Origin: Candidatus Thorarchaeota archaeon
GTDB lineage: Archaea > Asgardarchaeota > Thorarchaeia > Thorarchaeales > Thorarchaeaceae
Reading direction: 5' to 3'
Assembly: GCA_048884785.1 (NCBI GenBank)
Contig: JBHLQM010000063.1
Span: 1-21,128, forward strand
DNA: 21,128 nt
Shown: positions 10,311-17,789 of the stretch, piece by piece
Numbering within the stretch: the stretch's first letter is position 1
How the letters are laid out: each line of letters starts with the position of its first letter
Made by a program: the position numbers and the translations under genes
The notes under the pieces: generated by a model
What the model saw: only the letters and a program-made list of their open reading frames with translations
Told to the model about the DNA's origin: nothing
The model's database searches: none

Positions 10311-10422
10311 TTTTAAAAACAGACTTCTACACGTCGCGGGTTGTAGTAAGAATAGCCTGGGCTGCATACTATCTTGCAATCAAGCCAGTTGCCTAGTGCT
10401 GCAAAACTACAGGATGTTTAAG
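10311..10422 (+). promoter_or_regulatory. TATA box and about 80-nt 5' leader of the rpl3 operon
   Basis: TTTTAAAA at 10311-10318. The leader has complementary segments TGTAGT (10342-47) and ACTACA (10406-11). Confidence 0.45.
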
Positions 10423-11430
10423 GTGGCACATAGAAAGAAACACGCCCCACGAAGGGGTAGTCTAGCGTATCTTCCACGAGGCAAAGCTTCGAAGTTTGTA
10501 CCGCGTATAAAGAGCTGGCCGACATGGGAAGGTGACGCTTCAAAACTACTTGGTTTCGTTGGTTATAAGGCTGGTATGACACACGCAGTAGTGACCATTG
10601 ATAACCCGGACAGTCCATTTAAGGGACAAGAAACGGTCATTCCTGTCACAGTGATTGACACACCTCCGATACGCCCATTCTCAATTCGAGGCTATAGGAC
10701 AACACCATACGGAGGGAAGCTCGTGTCAGAAGTCCTTGCAGATAATCTCTCTGATGATCTCAAGAGAACCATGCCACTCCCGAAGGAGTACAATCAGGAA
10801 GTCAAGATGCAGGAGTTAGAGTCGAAGTTAGACTCCATTTCTGAGATTAGAATGTTGATACACACCCAGCCAAGACTTGCGGGAGTACCAAAGAAGAAAC
10901 CCGATATTATGGAGTACAAGATTGGTGCATCAAGTATCCAAGATGCCTTGGAATATGCAAAAAGTGTACTTGGAAAAGACGTACGTATCGCAGACATCAT
11001 CAGTGAAGGAATGCTTGTTGATACAATTGCAGTCACGAAAGGCCATGGTTTCCAGGGTCCAGTGCGACGCTGGGGTGTTAGAATACTGCAACACAAGTCA
11101 CGAAAGACGAAACGTGGTGTAGGCTGCATTGGTCCTTGGACTCCTGGAAGCATTCGCTATACAGTTCCTAGACCAGGTCAGACAGGGTTCCATACTCGAA
11201 CAAGCTATAACAACGCTGTTATCAAGCTAGGAGAACGTGGTGAGGAAATCACTCCCTCTGGCGGATTTGTGAACTACGGAGTTATTCGCGGTGACTATGT
11301 AATGCTAAAGGGTTCAATACCTGGTCCAGTTAAGCGACCAGTGCGACTCAGGTTTGCTATTCGTCCTACAAAGGGACACACTGGCTCGCCCATTCCAGTG
11401 AGCTACATCAGCACTGCATCAAAACAATAA
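10423..11430 (+). CDS. rpl3: 50S ribosomal protein uL3
   Basis: GTG start giving MAHRKKHAPRRGSL. GYKAGMTH, TKGHGFQGPV, GQTGFHTRT, LKGSIPG. Confidence 0.97.
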   Translation: MAHRKKHAPRRGSLAYLPRGKASKFVPRIKSWPTWEGDASKLLGFVGYKAGMTHAVVTIDNPDSPFKGQETVIPVTVIDTPPIRPFSIRGYRTTPYGGKLVSEVLADNLSDDLKRTMPLPKEYNQEVKMQELESKLDSISEIRMLIHTQPRLAGVPKKKPDIMEYKIGASSIQDALEYAKSVLGKDVRIADIISEGMLVDTIAVTKGHGFQGPVRRWGVRILQHKSRKTKRGVGCIGPWTPGSIRYTVPRPGQTGFHTRTSYNNAVIKLGERGEEITPSGGFVNYGVIRGDYVMLKGSIPGPVKRPVRLRFAIRPTKGHTGSPIPVSYISTASKQ

Positions 11431-11447: not shown

Positions 11448-12236
11448 ATGACAAGTGTAAAGACATACTCTCTGAAGGGTAAGGCTGGCACAGCAATCTC
11501 CCTCCCCTCGCAGTTTGATACACCCTATAGGCCTGATGTAATCAAACGTGCTGTCTTAGCTGTACAATCACGATCAAGACAACCACACGGCGTTGATGAG
11601 CTAGCTGGTAAGCGAAACACGGCGCAGAGCTGGCAGACTGGTCATGGCAAATCAAGAGTGCCTCGTATAAAGGGTAGCGGAACACCAGCAGCCAACAAGG
11701 CTGGATTTGCACCCGGTACAGTGGGTGGTCGTATTGCACACCCTCCTGAGGCTCGTGAGGTGATTATTGAACGAATCAATAAGAAGGAGAACCGTCTGGC
11801 AATCCGCTCTGCAATTGCAGCAACGGCTGATAAGAAGCGAGTTGGAGAGCGTGGTCACCAAGTTGAAGCTGTGCCTGAATTACCGCTAATTGTGGAGAAC
11901 AAGCTGGAAAGCCTGACCACTACAAAGGAATTCCTAGAAGTAGTCAACAAGCTTGGTCTTGAACAGGATCTTCAGCGTGCCATAAATGGTCGTGGAATCA
12001 GAGCCGGAAAGGGCAAGATGCGGGGCAGGAAACTGAAAACTCCCAAGTCCTTCCTAGTAGTAATTGGCGATGACCAAGGAATTGGTCTGGCTGCTCGAAA
12101 CCTCCCAGGAGTCGACATAGTCGAAGTTCATGGGCTCAACGCAGAGCTTCTAGCTCCGGGGACACATCCCGGTAGGCTAGTGTTGTGGACAGTGTCCGCA
12201 ATAGAGCGGCTCGGGAGTGAGAACCTGTTCAACTGA
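11448..12236 (+). CDS. rpl4: 50S ribosomal protein uL4
   Basis: RPDVIKRAV, GHGKSRVPR, GGRIAHPP, RAGKGKMRGR, LLAPGTHPGRL. GGAGG SD. Confidence 0.97.
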   Translation: MTSVKTYSLKGKAGTAISLPSQFDTPYRPDVIKRAVLAVQSRSRQPHGVDELAGKRNTAQSWQTGHGKSRVPRIKGSGTPAANKAGFAPGTVGGRIAHPPEAREVIIERINKKENRLAIRSAIAATADKKRVGERGHQVEAVPELPLIVENKLESLTTTKEFLEVVNKLGLEQDLQRAINGRGIRAGKGKMRGRKLKTPKSFLVVIGDDQGIGLAARNLPGVDIVEVHGLNAELLAPGTHPGRLVLWTVSAIERLGSENLFN

Positions 12237-12247
12237 GGTGATAGAAG

Positions 12248-12511
12248 ATGCGTGATCCAAACGAAGTCATACTGCGTCCTGTTGTCACTGAGGCTAGCCT
12301 CGAGGGAGTTGAACGGGAGAACAAGCTCGCCTTCTATGTGGCAAGAACCGCCAATAAGAACACAATCAAGTGGGCGGTAGAGTCACTATACGAGGTTGTA
12401 GTTGAGAATGTTAATACCCTGATAATGCCCAATGGAATGAAGAAGGCATTCGTGCGACTGGCACCGGAGTACAGTGCCGCTGATGTCGCAACCAACTTGG
12501 GTATATTCTAA
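12248..12511 (+). CDS. rpl23: 50S ribosomal protein uL23
   Basis: ILRPVVTEAS...ENKLAFYV...KKAFVRL...ATNLGIF. GAGGTGA SD and conserved operon position. Confidence 0.96.
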   Translation: MRDPNEVILRPVVTEASLEGVERENKLAFYVARTANKNTIKWAVESLYEVVVENVNTLIMPNGMKKAFVRLAPEYSAADVATNLGIF

Positions 12512-12523
12512 GGAGGCGGTCAT

Positions 12524-12595
12524 ATGGGAAAGCGAATTATTAGTTATCTTGGCGTTGTTGGTTGTGATGATGTGTTCAGGAGGTGGCCACGATAG
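12524..12595 (+). other. 23-codon uORF starting with an rpl2-like N-terminus (MGKRII), out of frame with rpl2
   Basis: AGGAGG SD (12511-16), ATG 12524, MGKRIISYLGVVGCDDVFRRWPR*. The stop TAG (12593-95) overlaps ATA (12592-94). Confidence 0.6.
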
Positions 12596-13314
12596 GAAAG
12601 CGAGTCCTCGTCCAACGCAAGGGAAGGGGCACTACGCAATGGCGCAGCCCCCGACATAAGAAGATTGCAGCAGCGAAGCACCCCAAGTGGGCACCAGACA
12701 AGACGTACTACGGTGTTATTGAAGGTCTCCTGCACGAATCCGGAAGAGGCGCACCTCTCGCCAAAGTCAAGTACGAGGGCGAAAAGGGCTATCACTACAT
12801 GGCCGCTCCAGAAGGAGCCTACGTTGGCCAGAATATCGAATGTGGTGAAGAAGCCACCCTAGCAACTGGCAACACACTCATGCTTGAATACATCCCAGAG
12901 GGTACTCCGATATTCAATATCGAAGGCGCCCCCGGAGATGGAGGTAAGTACGTGAGGTCATCCGGTCTAACAGCCACGATAATCTCTATCGACAAGCAAA
13001 AAGCCATTGTGCGGCTTCCAAGTGGAACCCAGAAGACCTTCAGTCCACGCTGTCGAGCTACCATTGGAATTGTTGCTGGCGGGGGTCGTGCTGAAAAGCC
13101 ATTCCTCAAGGCAGGAGCCGTGTGGCATCATGTTAAGGGCAAAGCCAGAAAATGGCCTGTTGTCCGTGGTGCTGCCATGAATGCAGCCTCACACCCTCAC
13201 GGTGGAGGAAGCCATCAATCCCCTGGTAGACCTAGCACAGTGAGCCGACACGCACCACCCGGTCGTAAAGTCGGTAACATTGCTGCAAGGAGAACCGGGC
13301 GTAAAAGTAAGTGA
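12592..13314 (+). CDS. rpl2: 50S ribosomal protein uL2 (start ATA 12592, or GTG 12583)
   Basis: GKRVLVQRKGRG, GRGAPLA, ATIGIVAGGGR, WPVVRGAAMNAASHPHGGG, PGRKVG. ATA occupies the expected Met position, with AGGAGG 8 nt upstream. Confidence 0.95.
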   Translation: MGKRVLVQRKGRGTTQWRSPRHKKIAAAKHPKWAPDKTYYGVIEGLLHESGRGAPLAKVKYEGEKGYHYMAAPEGAYVGQNIECGEEATLATGNTLMLEYIPEGTPIFNIEGAPGDGGKYVRSSGLTATIISIDKQKAIVRLPSGTQKTFSPRCRATIGIVAGGGRAEKPFLKAGAVWHHVKGKARKWPVVRGAAMNAASHPHGGGSHQSPGRPSTVSRHAPPGRKVGNIAARRTGRKSK

Positions 13315-13345
13315 AAGGCTCCTAGGAGCCTTTCCTCATTTCTTT
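13313..13345 (+). terminator. Hairpin plus T-rich terminator after rpl2
   Basis: Perfect 22-bp palindrome GAAAGGCTCCT-AGGAGCCTTTC (13313-13334) followed by CTCATTTCTTTTT. Confidence 0.75.
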
Positions 13346-13543
13346 TTAAGAATCATTTAGTTGCTCAACCTCTCTTTCAACTTCTGCCTTCAGTTTGGAT
13401 TTGAATTTGCAGACAGCTTTATAGCCTTTGGAAACAACATGGATATGCCTTACGCCTCTTCGTGGTGGAACGTGGAGTATGCTAGACAAAGGTTAGGAGC
13501 TTATTTCAACTTACTGAATAGAACATCAGAAGGTGAAAAAGAG

Positions 13544-14680
13544 ATGGAGAAAAAATACAGATTGCCTGTAATAGGTATCTGTTTGGTTTTCATATCAACA
13601 GGTTTTGTTGTTGCACTCTCTCAGCCATTTGACAGTCCCTTGGTTGTTGTCTTTGGCGATTCTAAAGCTGAAGATGCAGCTCTGGCAATCCTATTAGATG
13701 AGATGCCAAACAGTTTAGTCGTACAATATGATAGCTTTGCCTATGATTTTTTCAAAATGAAATCAATTGGTGTAGCTATATTGATTGGGCATGGGAATGA
13801 AGCAGGGATTTTTCAAAACGGAAAATTGGTTCAAGCCCAAGAGATTGTAGCAGAAATATCGAATACGCCAGCAAGAAGGATCATGATAACTGCATGCAAT
13901 TCTAAGGCAATTGCTGACCTTGATGAATCAGGTCGGAGTTTTGGATTTTCACATTATGTCGATGCAGAGCTTGCAGCATTTGAAACTGCAATTAGAGTTC
14001 AGATATTCTACAATATGCGTGATGCTGCTTGGAAAACATTTGAGAAGTTTCTTGATGTGCTTTCAACAAAGTTTTCCGACGAAACTAGTATCCTCCCACT
14101 AATGCCCATAGAAGGAGGAGGAGGCGGTGGCGGTGGCGGAACTCCACCTCCGACGCACAGCCTTAGTGGTTCTGAGCTATTTAATGCTGCTATGGTATTT
14201 GCTCTCGGATGTGTATTTGCCCTTGTTGGAATCGCCATTTCAATTGCTACTTCCAAATTAGGGGCTGCAATCTCCTCAAGATTAGGTTCAATTGGTTCTT
14301 CAGGTGGTATTCTAAGTAAGATCTACAACTTCTTCATAACCATTGGTCCAGCAGGGATAGGGAGTCTTTTGGCATTAGTAAACACTCTATTTGGAGGTAT
14401 ACTTAGTCTTGCAGGTGCATGGCTCACTGCCAGTGTTGACATAGTCGCATCTTGGATAGCAGCTATGGATATAGTTGAATGGATGATCTTCCTCGGTCTG
14501 ACTGGTATCGAGGTGATACTAGCAATCCTGACTGCAGGTGCAGAACCACTAGCCAGGCTTCAGATTGGAATCCTTGTTGCAATCATGAATGCTGCATTAA
14601 TTGCGATTTCTGATTATAATGACTACAACGATGTACCCTGTCAGTCAGTGATGCAGGCGGCATCCCAATTGCTTGGGTAA
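13544..14680 (+). CDS. Exported clan-CD (caspase/gingipain/CHAT-like) cysteine-protease-domain protein with Gly linker and hydrophobic helical C-terminal domain; candidate self-processing toxin
   Basis: AGGTGA SD at 13531 before ATG 13544. Signal-like MEKKYRLPVIGICLVFISTGFVVALS. AILIGHG (His83) and IMITACNS (Cys118), G9-TPPPT linker, then about 175 aa of Gly/Ala/Ile/Leu-rich helices. Confidence 0.65.
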   Translation: MEKKYRLPVIGICLVFISTGFVVALSQPFDSPLVVVFGDSKAEDAALAILLDEMPNSLVVQYDSFAYDFFKMKSIGVAILIGHGNEAGIFQNGKLVQAQEIVAEISNTPARRIMITACNSKAIADLDESGRSFGFSHYVDAELAAFETAIRVQIFYNMRDAAWKTFEKFLDVLSTKFSDETSILPLMPIEGGGGGGGGGTPPPTHSLSGSELFNAAMVFALGCVFALVGIAISIATSKLGAAISSRLGSIGSSGGILSKIYNFFITIGPAGIGSLLALVNTLFGGILSLAGAWLTASVDIVASWIAAMDIVEWMIFLGLTGIEVILAILTAGAEPLARLQIGILVAIMNAALIAISDYNDYNDVPCQSVMQAASQLLG

Positions 14681-14692
14681 TTTTCTTTCTAG

Positions 14693-14717
14693 AACTGCCA
14701 ACATATAGTTGGCAGTT
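14693..14717. terminator. Hairpin between convergent genes
   Basis: AACTGCCAAC-ATATA-GTTGGCAGTT, a 10-bp perfect stem followed by TCTTCTTTCTT. Confidence 0.7.
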
Positions 14718-14726
14718 TCTTCTTTC

Positions 14727-15416
14727 TTATGGTCTATCAACGAGTGTGTATGCAACTACATCAATCCCATCGGCAATGTCTAAAGCCGCTAACATATCCT
14801 GTATCTCACTTCGAAAAGCCTCTGGTATCTTCTTGCTAATTGACATATCATATACAGGAACATGCAATGTTATTTCCTTGTATGTGAATTTCCCTTCTTG
14901 TGATCCAGTAATCTCTCGAAGTTTAGCAAATCCCTTGATAGCAATCCTCCTATTGTAGACTGGGAATTGGAAAATGATCGCCACAATCGGAATTCCACAT
15001 AATATGGTTGTAATACCAAATATGGGAAGCAGGAATGGTCCAATTGGTTCCATTATCGCTAAGAGAAAACTGCTCCCAAATCCAGCTAGCATTACTGCAA
15101 TTACCCATGCCACAAGTGTAAGACCGATAACAATCATCCAAATTATCCCTGCAAAGAAACCCATGACCGCTCTTCTGAAATATTTCTCTCGATTATGTTT
15201 ATTTGGAACAATCATACCTACGGATGGATTCATTTTTGCCTCCTTGAACCTGTAAATGCCAATGGTATAATCATCCTCATCAATTGTATATTCTACTACT
15301 TTTTCTATTCCCCCAATAGGTTCGAAATCACTCTCATTAGGGAAGTTTTGACTTTCAATTGTGAAGTAATGAATTCGGTCAGTTTTTGTCGGGGACAAAT
15401 ACGAAATCTCATCCAT
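14727..15416 (-). CDS. Hypothetical membrane protein (central hydrophobic hairpin of 2-3 TM helices)
   Basis: About 230 aa with soluble N- and C-terminal parts flanking about 70 hydrophobic residues (AVMGFFAGIIW...IVAIIFQFP). Confidence 0.7.
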   Translation of the reverse strand: MDEISYLSPTKTDRIHYFTIESQNFPNESDFEPIGGIEKVVEYTIDEDDYTIGIYRFKEAKMNPSVGMIVPNKHNREKYFRRAVMGFFAGIIWMIVIGLTLVAWVIAVMLAGFGSSFLLAIMEPIGPFLLPIFGITTILCGIPIVAIIFQFPVYNRRIAIKGFAKLREITGSQEGKFTYKEITLHVPVYDMSISKKIPEAFRSEIQDMLAALDIADGIDVVAYTLVDRP

Positions 15417-15442
15417 AAATACCACACACTAAGAAACTCTTG

Positions 15443-15458
15443 AATCTATATATAGATT
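15443..15458. promoter_or_regulatory. Palindromic bidirectional TATA element between divergent genes
   Basis: AATCTATATATAGATT, a perfect 16-bp palindrome 27 nt from ATG 15416 (minus strand) and 60 nt from ATG 15518 (plus strand). Confidence 0.55.
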
Positions 15459-15517
15459 ATAGTCCAGAAACATGAAAACCCTTATCTTCTTCTTATTAAC
15501 GAATTGACTTGGTTAAG

Positions 15518-15823
15518 ATGGGCACCTATATTGAGGAGATTCCCTTTCCTTATGGTGAAGAAGATGCCAGAATTCGAATAAATAAGTGGAGAGAGAATCA
15601 CGGGAAGGATTTCAAGCTTGAGAAAAGGGGATCTAATTGGATCTTGATAAAGCACAAGACCATGCATTTCATCATCACCTTTCTTCCTGAAGTAGTCAAA
15701 ATAGAGGGCTGGGTGGGTGGAGTTACTAAGTACTCGATAAGTCCCGATGCCTTTGTAGGAGCTTACGCCCGAAGAAAAGGATGGAAAGTATATGAAACAC
15801 TTAGAGCCACATTTATCGATTAA
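15518..15823 (+). CDS. Small hypothetical alpha/beta protein (101 aa)
   Basis: ORF with protein-like amphipathic pattern, divergent from the neighbouring membrane-protein gene. No family recognised. Confidence 0.65.
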   Translation: MGTYIEEIPFPYGEEDARIRINKWRENHGKDFKLEKRGSNWILIKHKTMHFIITFLPEVVKIEGWVGGVTKYSISPDAFVGAYARRKGWKVYETLRATFID

Positions 15824-15955
15824 GGAGCCTTGAATGCGTAGCTCAGACATAGAAATCCGATTTCATTACTCATCCTTTCTTATGCTCAATCATCTAGAAG
15901 ATACCTAAACTATGAATTATATATAGTTAATACATGGAATCTTTGAGAGATGGTC

Positions 15956-16024
15956 GTGAAATATAGACGAGCCGAAAAATGTGGGTTTAGAGTTTCTGAG
16001 ATATCACTAGGTTCAGGGACTACG
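15956..16024 (+). pseudogene. 5' stub of an aldo/keto reductase
   Basis: GTG-KYRRAEKCGFRVSEISLGSGTT matches the typical AKR N-terminus MxYRRLGKSGLKVSEISLGSW. TTATATATAG box upstream (15917-26). Similarity ends abruptly at the rpl2 remnant. Confidence 0.65.
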
Positions 16025-16029
16025 GTGAA

Positions 16030-16231
16030 AAGTACATCCTGTCTTCAGGGCTTACTGTTACAATCATATCCACAGACAAGGCAAAGTCAACGATCCGTCT
16101 TCTAAGTGGTGTTCAGAAGGTTTTCAGTCCAGGCTGTAGAGCTACGATTGGAATTGTGGCCGATGGTGGACGGCAGGAGAAACCATTCCTCAAAAACTGG
16201 AGCAGTCTGGCATCACACTCGTGGCAAAGCA
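16030..16231 (+). pseudogene. rpl2: Second, partial, frameshifted copy of rpl2
   Basis: KYILSSGLTVTIISTDKAKSTIRLLSGVQKVFSPGCRATIGIVADGGRQEKPFLK[+1 A]TGAVWHHTRGKA aligns to rpl2 12946-13146 with 50/67 identical residues by manual count. No start codon. Confidence 0.93.
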
Positions 16232-16344
16232 GCCTTTCACTAAGCGCCCAACAGAAATTGTGATTTTTACTGGCATCCTTATCCTACCCCAGTATTACAC
16301 AAACACATATCCCTCTATGACACGGGTGCTATAGAGGACTAGTA

Positions 16345-16527
16345 ATGCGTCTAATAGCTGTACACCTGCCTGACAAACTCCTAGATGACATTCAACGCCT
16401 TGTTGACAATGGTCTCTATCCAAATCGGTCCGAAGCAATTAGGATTGCAATCAGAGACCTGCTAAAGCAGGAGCTCTGGGGGCGAAACAATCCAATAAGT
16501 GCAAAGGTGAGTGAGATCATAAGGTGA
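16345..16527 (+). CDS. cdrS: Ribbon-helix-helix regulator CdrS (cell division regulator)
   Basis: MRLIAVHLPDKLLDDIQRLVDNGLYPNRSEAIRIAIRDLL. Overlaps the ftsZ start (GTGA), matching the conserved archaeal cdrS-ftsZ2 arrangement. Confidence 0.88.
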   Translation: MRLIAVHLPDKLLDDIQRLVDNGLYPNRSEAIRIAIRDLLKQELWGRNNPISAKVSEIIR

Positions 16528-17789
16528 AGTCACTGATAGATTCTGCCAGAGAACATAATCGTGTTGAGAGGCCACTAGGTTCTTCACTTGATATGGGTCA
16601 GGCACGTATTGTGGTGATAGGCTGCGGAGGGGCAGGAAACAATACTGTCAAACGGCTAATGACAATAGGGGTACAAGGCGCAGAGTGCATAGCAATAAAC
16701 ACCGATCGCCAACATCTTGCAGTCACGACAGCTCACAGAAAGCTACTCATCGGAGAAAAAATAACACGTGGCCTAGGCGCTGGCGGATACCCCCACGTTG
16801 GACAGGCTGCTGCAGAAGAATCTGCGCATCAGCTCTCTGAGCTATTGCGTGATGCAGACCTAGTATTCATCGCAGCTGGCATGGGAGGTGGCACTGGTAC
16901 AGGAAGCGCGCCTATTGTGGCTGAAATCGCAAAACGGAATGATGCCATTGTTGTTGGAGTGGTCACCATGCCTTTCAGTCTTGAGAGGTCCCGTATTGAC
17001 AAAGCAAAGGCAGGTCTAGCCAGGCTACAGGAATTTGCAGATACTGTAGTGGTTATTGATAATCAGAAACTGATGGAGCTTGTCCCGGACCTTCCACTTG
17101 AGGAGGCCTTTGGTGTTGCAGATGAGGTCCTAGCTGCAATGACCAAGGGAATCACTGAGACAATCACCATGCCTAGTCTCATCAATCTTGATTATGCCGA
17201 TGTTCGTTCCATCATTTGCAATGGTGGGGTCGCTCTAGTAGGACTCGGTGAGGCAACAGGCTCAAATCGAGCTGAGGATGCTATTAAAAACGCACTGAAC
17301 AGCCCACTACTTGAAGTAGAATGGAAGGGTGCAACTGGTGCATTAATTCATATCACCGGCGGTCCCGATATGTCGCTGGCTGAAGCCAATGGGGTTGGTG
17401 AGAAGATCTCGGAAAAGATGAGTCTTGATGCAAATGTAATCTGGGGAGCACGTGTTGAGCCTCGTTTGACAGGTACTCTCCGTGTCATGTTGATTCTTAC
17501 CGGTGTGAAGAGTCCACAGTTACTTGCAAGGTCAAAGGAGGAGGTCGATTCAGGCAAGGGTCGCAGACGACTCTCTGATCTTGGTCTGATGAGCGACTCT
17601 GCAGGAACACTTGATCCTCGAAAGATAAAGGCCGAGTTTAGATCAATTGGTAAGGTTCCCACCGCCACTAGAAGCAGTTGGGAGGATCGGCTCAAGCCTC
17701 TTGAGAAGAGATTGGAAGGGCGGTCTGGTCCATTACCTGAGGAGAGAAAAAAGAGTCTGGATGACCTTGGACTTCGACGGATTATGTGA
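16524..17789 (+). CDS. ftsZ: Cell division protein FtsZ (FtsZ2-type context)
   Basis: [19 protein letters not shown], tubulin signature [10 protein letters not shown]7 loop INLDYADV. Confidence 0.97.

Follow-up and report, generated by a model that had tools for sequence, protein, structure and literature searches.

Start codons are treated as nearly fixed in core genes, and gene callers assume that they are ATG, GTG or TTG. Some described systems depart from this rule or from continuous reading of the mRNA. In particular, the AUU codon of E. coli infC is a non-AUG start that is used for control, and the bypass of T4 gene 60 takes place between matched codons around a non-coding gap, with a stop after the take-off codon and a take-off hairpin. 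In archaea, termination-reinitiation at overlapping stop/start pairs, with a Shine-Dalgarno sequence (SD) inside the upstream ORF, is established (PMC6728339; PMC12548453). In E. coli, AUA, CUG and especially UUA are poor initiators whose efficiency is at most 1-2% of that of AUG (10.1101/063800), and in archaea aIF1 selects against start codons other than the canonical ones (PMC6237735).

Here, we describe an rpl2 gene from a genome of the Thorarchaeota (Asgard archaea), encoding the essential ribosomal protein uL2, whose start is duplicated and whose second copy carries ATA in the initiator position. According to our best reading, the scar of a mobile element has moved this essential gene onto a coupled non-AUG start, in an arrangement that is both inherited and recurrent. 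The kinds of mechanism involved are already known; what is notable is the gene affected and the absence of any canonical start in several species.

Materials and Methods

The window is the whole stretch of DNA that was analysed (21,128 nt), which is the entire 21.1-kb contig of a 3.6-Mb metagenome bin, 91% complete and with 5.4% contamination; its genome is denoted G000. All compared genomes are metagenome bins. uL2 was located in all 86 species genomes of the family, and the uL23-uL2 junction was readable in 78 of them. Contigs of four public runs were compared with positions 12000-16700, most of which is without contig cover. Sequence collections were scanned with a 17-base core motif; the matches were mostly due to chance, and two metagenome contigs (L227 and L297) were the sole new true cases.

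Results

The rpl2 start is duplicated at the uL23-uL2 junction

All features of the junction are on the forward strand. In the list of open reading frames, rpl23 (uL23, 12248 to 12511) is the last gene ahead of the junction and ends in the TAA at 12509-12511; the gene order uL3-uL4-uL23-uL2 is found in relatives too, by tblastn synteny. The first copy of the rpl2 start (12511 to 12535) comprises the ancestral ribosome-binding site, AGGAGG (12511-12516) followed by 7 nt and ATG (12524-12526), and rpl2 codons 2-4 (GGA AAG CGA, 12527-12535). The same type of sequence lies directly 3′ of the uL23 stop in 70 normal junctions of the family and is intact in all insert-bearing genomes, and here it is now the start of an upstream ORF (uORF). 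This uORF (12524 to 12595) has 23 codons and a TAG, passes through a second SD and ends on the uL2 start, where its TAG (12593-12595) overlaps the ATA (12592-12594) in the motif ATAG. Between the two copies lie 42 unique bases of insert (12536 to 12577). The second copy (12578 to 12594) consists of the SD AGGAGGTG (12578-12585), 6 nt and the ATA in the initiator position; it is followed by GGA AAG CGA at 12595-12603, offset by 68 nt from the first copy, and removing 68 nt restores the frame exactly. It aligns without gaps with the second copy in G001, a genome of the same genus, which has ATC at the position of the ATA. A GTG (12583-12585) overlaps the second SD and is the sole canonical in-frame codon between the in-frame TGA at 12568-12570 and Gly-2. 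From Gly-2 to its stop, rpl2 is intact (12595 to 13314; Pfam Ribosomal_L2_C) and is the single full uL2 match in the assembly. A terminator-like hairpin with a T-rich tail (13313 to 13334), found by a consensus scan only, lies directly 3′ of it. The earlier note on this DNA had described the duplicated start, its coordinates and a uORF that stops on the ATA, and re-reading the sequence gave the same picture.

The junction RNA is not predicted to hold a conserved structure, as its folds are no better than those of shuffles (z = +1.65, +0.47 and -0.73), and a long-range helix between 12484-12496 and 12557-12569 is predicted in G000 and not in G006, another genome of the same genus. A frameshift fusion of the uORF with uL2 was considered and rejected: no slippery site was found by inspection, the shift needed would be -1, and the spacing of the SD appears to fit neither known type.

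Independent contigs carry the insert and the ATA

An RNA-library (metatranscriptome) contig from a different study covers 12382-12797 with two substitutions elsewhere and no indel, leaving 12592-12594 unchanged. A third study provides a DNA contig that matches 12533-12741 with 0 differences. Three independent assemblies therefore agree on the insert and the ATA. The earlier note had called for confirmation of both features, and had considered an ATG at 12592 or a misassembly; the contigs from the two other studies have the 68-nt insert and the ATA, and both thus exist in nature. A 12-nt repeat in two copies could by itself be due to chance, but the agreement of independent assemblies, the homologous insert of G006 and the recurrence in 10 loci of four genera show that it is real. 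The uORF and uL2 are co-directional, and the RNA-library contig runs from uL23 through the uORF to uL2, though its depth is about 3.5 and it could derive from carried-over DNA. It has no joint that skips the insert; the unspliced form alone was seen, in this one low-depth contig, and contigs drop rare forms.

A non-AUG codon in the rpl2 start position recurs in the family

The uL23-uL2 junction is normal in 70 of the 78 readable cases, with the uL23 stop, about 18 nt including GGAGG, and then a start codon (67 ATG, 2 GTG and 1 TTG). Eight junctions, in 4 of 16 genera, carry an insert after rpl2 codon 3-4. They belong to G000, G006 and G001 in the genus of the window; to G051, G063 and G054; to G046; and to G094. 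All eight show the uL23 stop, an intact SD and ATG with 2-4 rpl2 codons, and then unrelated sequence, until uL2 resumes behind a second GGAGG that lies a constant 11 nt from the Gly-2 codon, apart from G006, where the distance is 13 nt. The arrangement of GGAGG, 8 nt, a codon and Gly-2 is constant in 7 genomes. The initiator position is occupied by ACG in three genomes, by TTA in two, by ATA or ATC in others, and by ATG in G006 alone. L227 and L297 are further cases of the ACG type, which brings the total to 10 insert-bearing loci. The start duplication thus recurs in 10 loci and four genera, and the insert with a non-AUG codon in the start position is a recurrent feature of the family that is not private to this genome. 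These loci are related, so that 10 of 10 does not stand for ten independent events. Each insert-bearing assembly has one copy of full-length uL2.

A short ORF ends on the uL2 start at every insert locus

At all 10 insert loci, a uORF of 19-31 codons, in a frame other than that of uL2, passes the second SD and, behind the conserved GGAGG, ends on the uL2 start, with its stop at -7 to -2 of Gly-2; among shuffled sequences, the arrangement arises in 4-6% of trials per locus. In G000 and G006, the uORF starts at the old rpl2 ATG; elsewhere it starts at the ATG of a leader copy described below, which in G001 is a GTG. The homologous uORF of G006 has 22 codons. Four stop solutions are found (C-TGA-CG, A-TAA-TC, A/T-TAG-G and TGA-G-ATG), which create the overlaps ATAG at 12592-12595 here and CTGA, ATAA or TTAG in relatives, and the arrangement TGA-G-ATG in G006. 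The uORFs of the long inserts keep a conserved SD and ATG, and their length differences of 18 and 36 nt preserve the frame; the uORF peptide is unconstrained.

The open stretch of the uL2 frame ahead of Gly-2 spans 7-10 codons, and at 5 of the 10 loci it contains no ATG, GTG or TTG; the presumed restart codon in the window, ATA, is likewise non-canonical. The uL2 gene itself is under strong purifying selection, with a dN/dS of 0.03-0.07 among the insert-bearing genes, and codons 2-13 change synonymously while the protein is conserved. Ribosomes must therefore enter the uL2 frame at one of the 7-10 codons that are open ahead of Gly-2. The GTG at 12583, which the earlier note had put forward as a start, could serve in this genome, although it is not conserved, being in another frame in G006 and absent from G001; GUG 12583 is the less likely start. 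Automatic annotation would choose it for rpl2 here, and for some relatives would either miss the start or call a truncated one.

The long inserts end in a block resembling the rpl3 leader

The native leader of the operon lies ahead of rpl3 (10341 to 10425, forward strand) and comprises a conserved hairpin (10341-10411) and the uL3 start. This structured leader is strongly conserved in the family, and native leaders were also located in relatives (L352:1436-1556, L355:1432-1552, L094:1456-1576 and L097:2211-2331). They share an invariant base stem with an internal loop and a variable upper stem, followed by a GGTGA SD and the start; the leader matches no Rfam family and is a candidate autoregulatory ribosomal-protein leader. 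In this genome, the GGTGA SD of the relatives is altered, and the apparent uL3 start is either GTG 10423, in alignment with the relatives' ATG, or ATG 10414, which lies three codons further 5′.

The last ~200 nt at the right end of the inserts are conserved and contain a hairpin with a few compensatory changes. All six long inserts hold a copy of the operon's own rpl3 leader at this end, and native leaders and copies share the invariant elements TGTAG.A.GAATAG, CTGCAAAACTAC, the GGTGA SD and the ATG. Past this ATG, the native leaders lead into uL3 and the copies into an unrelated ORF of 19-31 codons. The right-end block is a paralogous copy of the native rpl3 leader. The window contains no second leader copy, and the exact core motif occurs once in the genome.

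Some inserts of relatives carry a gene with a predicted LAGLIDADG fold

The inserts of relatives are 1-3.6 kb long; three genomes have uL23 and uL2 on one contig, at a distance of 3.6 kb (G054), 2.5 kb (G046) and 1.0 kb (G094). A 746-aa ORF precedes uL2 in G054, G051 and G063, a truncated C-terminal part of it is found in G094 and only its last ~37 residues in G001, while G046 has other genes in its place. The inserts include ORFs on the opposite strand, and their left ends are unconserved and variable in position.

Sequence searches of Pfam and the PDB with the 746-aa product returned no useful match. An alignment of 25 sequences shows invariant D251-G252 and D348-G349 in two LAGLIDADG-type motifs, and the AlphaFold (AF2) model of residues 200-746 has a pLDDT of 85 and a pTM of 0.83. 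The top Foldseek matches of the model are PI-SceI, I-Tsp061I (TM 0.55 on the target), I-DmoI and PI-PfuI, and its best matches comprise only LAGLIDADG homing endonucleases and WhiA, which derives from them. The modelled structure thus indicates that the insert gene has a LAGLIDADG fold and is homing-endonuclease-like; the protein additionally has N-terminal helix-turn-helix (HTH) repeats and extra domains. Its 29 protein homologues all come from Thorarchaeota, and the family, with members at L097:5573-7813 (G054), L095:3606-5789 and L096:375-2504, is multi-copy: it occupies many loci, with as many as 13 matches in one genome, and has no match in the genome of the window. No source gives the family a name. 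We infer that the endonuclease-like gene caused the insertion.

Further, the uL2 body of L227 (contig VAPA010025953.1) is nearly identical to that of G054 (dS 0.10), while its leader copy and uORF block are of the G063 type. Judged from this mismatch, L227 looks recombinant, consistent with mobility of the element, and implies separate histories for the element and the uL2 gene. Together with the patchy distribution of the insert (8 of 78 junctions, 4 of 16 genera), L227 bears only indirectly on site-specific cleavage of the empty allele and on homing. On a contig of G051 (C26; L101 and L105), two rpl2 stubs lie 3.5 kb apart, one after a full uL23 and the other after a partial uL23 copy (aa 59-87), which suggests repeated insertion at the same site. 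In G068 (L094:3376-3830), no more than 125 nt separate uL23 residues 1-48 from uL2 residues 176-237, and no full uL2 was found in this 93%-complete bin; the locus is thus a deletion allele that spans the junction.

The 68-nt insert is inherited and read as a deleted long insert

The insert of G000 is homologous over its whole length to the 70-nt insert of G006 (0 of 500 shuffles reach the alignment score), and the short insert is therefore inherited. Because the short and long inserts share their site and the design of their right end, and because G001 still has the leader copy and the endonuclease tail as an intermediate, we read the 68 nt as a long insert that was internally deleted, a descent that no sequence similarity supports. 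In particular, homology by eye between the 42 unique bases and the ends of the long inserts was without support on test. Two other sources were tried and rejected: a tandem duplication of rpl2 codons 4-20 as the origin of the 42 bases found no support, and derivation of the uORF body from the 3′ end of uL23 gave p = 0.02 in one of eight tests, with the others at chance.

Under this descent, an insertion would have split rpl2 after codon 3-4, with relatives keeping variable cargo. The right end of the ancestral insert would have held the leader copy (hairpin, GGTGA and the rpl3 ATG), a short ORF, the second GGAGG and the rest of rpl2. Nearly all of the insert would then have been deleted in the G000/G006 lineage, and as a consequence the old rpl2 ribosome-binding site would now start the short ORF.

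A scar of gene replacement had been among the earlier proposals. The scar stands, in the form of an insertion at rpl2 codon 3-4 that is still complete in relatives; replacement does not. The uL2 tree, although poorly resolved with 15 of its 26 inner branches open, groups sequences by genus and not by insert state, which argues that the uL2 body was not replaced and, likewise, that uL2 did not travel with the element.

The window also contains a uL2 pseudo-fragment at 16024-16230 (aa 116-185, with a frameshift in an A-run), which sits a short way upstream of an RHH gene (16346-16528) and ftsZ (16524-17789). In relatives, intact rpl2 occupies this site, and in G001 uL2 runs straight into ftsZ; the DNA of the pseudo-fragment is 69.5% identical to rpl2 of the window and 75% to that of G005. 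The 5′ duplication is common to G000, G006 and G001, and G006 and G001 have neither the downstream cargo of the window nor its pseudo-fragment. The 5′ duplication is thus older than the downstream rearrangement and independent of it.

Discussion

Taken together, the arrangement makes termination-reinitiation at AUA 12592 the most likely route to uL2, with a probability of roughly 0.55. Ribosomes would load at the strong first site (12511-12526) and translate 23 codons through the second SD. They would terminate at the UAG (12593-12595), where pairing between the SD and the anti-SD, 8 nt upstream, would hold the ribosome, and they would restart on the overlapping AUA (12592-12594; AUAG, the counterpart of the common AUGA), yielding uL2 with a normal N-terminus. 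The earlier note had listed this mechanism among its options, and it fits because a uORF that stops on the start recurs in 10 of 10 insert loci. Its weak point is efficiency, as poor start codons sit badly with an abundant protein. A stronger version is tentative and clearly less probable than the mechanism itself. It holds that uL2 synthesis in a set of Thorarchaeota depends obligatorily on termination of the tiny uORF, with restart on AUA, CUG or UUA positioned only by the SD. The loss of AUG would perhaps be a response to a resident LAGLIDADG endonuclease that targets the native start region, where a change gives immunity, and the copied rpl3 leader and the strict coupling would keep rpl2 under the operon's own translational control.

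The alternative that comes nearest, although we consider it unlikely, accepts the insertion remnant and has uL2 initiated de novo at the second SD, on AUA or on GUG 12583, so that the uORF is an incidental by-product of the retained old start. The SD at 12578-12585 is indeed ideally spaced to the ATA, as in the native sites of the family, G006 has a proper ATG at that place, and the unconstrained uORF peptide is as expected. De novo initiation leaves unexplained, however, why a stop in the same alternative frame falls at -7 to -2 of Gly-2 in 10 of 10 loci through four sequence solutions, and why the long-insert uORFs retain their conserved SD and ATG and remain open despite indels of 18 and 36 nt; moreover, AUA, CUG or UUA would support only very weak initiation of this kind (10.1101/063800). 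Removal of the insert from the mRNA as an intron, with translation from the first ATG giving MGKRVLVQR, would account for the exact frame restoration, for the intact first SD and ATG in every insert-bearing genome and for the presence of a LAGLIDADG gene, as such genes typically ride in introns in archaea (the fold matches I-DmoI and I-Tsp061I). The observations nevertheless make an intron, whether of 68 nt or of the kilobase lengths of relatives, improbable: the RNA-library contig spans the insert unspliced, candidate bulge-helix-bulge (BHB) motifs are at chance level without a consistent frame-restoring position in five same-contig inserts of 5 genomes, and the three long-insert loci and the window have no group I or II Rfam match at E<=1 and no match to any other Rfam family. 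In addition, the left ends of the inserts are variable and unconserved, genes on the opposite strand and a separate leader copy lie within the inserts, and the two copies of the rpl2 start differ in G006, where a shared splice register is not evident. The loss of 68 nt from the mRNA that the earlier note suggested is thus without support.

Ribosomal bypassing, also raised at the outset, is less probable still. It could take the form of a hop over 68 nt between the matched GGA AAG CGA codons, which are present in this genome, or of a short hop from CGA 12590-12592 over the UAG to CGA 12601-12603, where, as in T4 gene 60, a stop comes after the take-off codon. For the long hop, ATT and not a stop follows the take-off codon and there is no take-off hairpin; the short hop would have the conserved GKR give way to an unconserved 23-residue extension. 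The codons are mismatched in G006 and other relatives, and bypassing is impossible across kilobase inserts. The least probable explanation is an assembly artefact, or a dead rpl2 with a working gene elsewhere. The 5.4% contamination of the bin lends it some weight, as does a second rpl2 3′ fragment that starts contig C149 (L036, 1-171) and is followed by unrelated genes. At the DNA level, however, that fragment is most similar to a different genus (88% to G011), and C149 is thus probably mis-binned. The explanation is also at odds with the agreement of three independent assemblies, with the finding of only one full uL2 both here and in each relative, and with the strong purifying selection on uL2.

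Whichever route is used, an essential ribosomal protein gene in several Asgard species lacks ATG, GTG and TTG, yet is clearly kept functional. If reinitiation on AUA, CUG or UUA is true, it widens the known rules of translational coupling in archaea. It would also show how a gene of the host can survive when a mobile element invades right at its start, and would serve as a warning that genes of this kind are mis-called by automatic annotation. If the obligatory coupling is true as well, it would be a natural case of efficient non-AUG reinitiation for an essential and abundant protein, in the archaeal lineage closest to eukaryotes. The analysis also adds two new objects, a Thorarchaeota-specific multi-copy family with a LAGLIDADG fold and a conserved rpl3 leader that was copied to serve rpl2.

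Compared with known systems, the locus resembles T4 gene 60 in that matched codons flank a gap of tens of bases and an SD-like element precedes the landing site, but here there is neither a stop after take-off nor a take-off hairpin, the match is unconserved and the gap reaches kilobases in relatives. With the AUU of infC it shares a weak start on a gene of the translation apparatus, conserved among relatives; the codon here, in contrast, varies (ATA, ATC, ACG/CTG, TTA) and always overlaps or abuts an upstream stop. Homing endonucleases, both free-standing ones and the archaeal enzymes I-DmoI and I-Tsp061I that are encoded in introns, offer the same double-motif LAGLIDADG fold with invariant acidic residues, insertion at a highly conserved site of an essential gene, differing histories of element and host (as in L227), and full, truncated and nearly lost stages side by side. 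The gene of the relatives differs from them in having no surrounding intron or intein, in its N-terminal HTH repeats and extra domains (746 aa), and in its multiple copies at many loci. The closest likeness in layout is to the archaeal and bacterial termination-reinitiation pairs (ATGA, TGATG; Huber et al. 2019, PMC6728339; reviewed in PMC12548453), which have co-directional ORFs, a 4-nt stop/start overlap and an SD that lies within the upstream ORF, a few bases ahead of the restart site. In those pairs, the restart codon is NUG and the upstream partner is a gene; here, restart would take place on AUA (in relatives on CUG, AUA or UUA), the ORF upstream is tiny and unconserved, and the downstream partner is an essential, abundant ribosomal protein.
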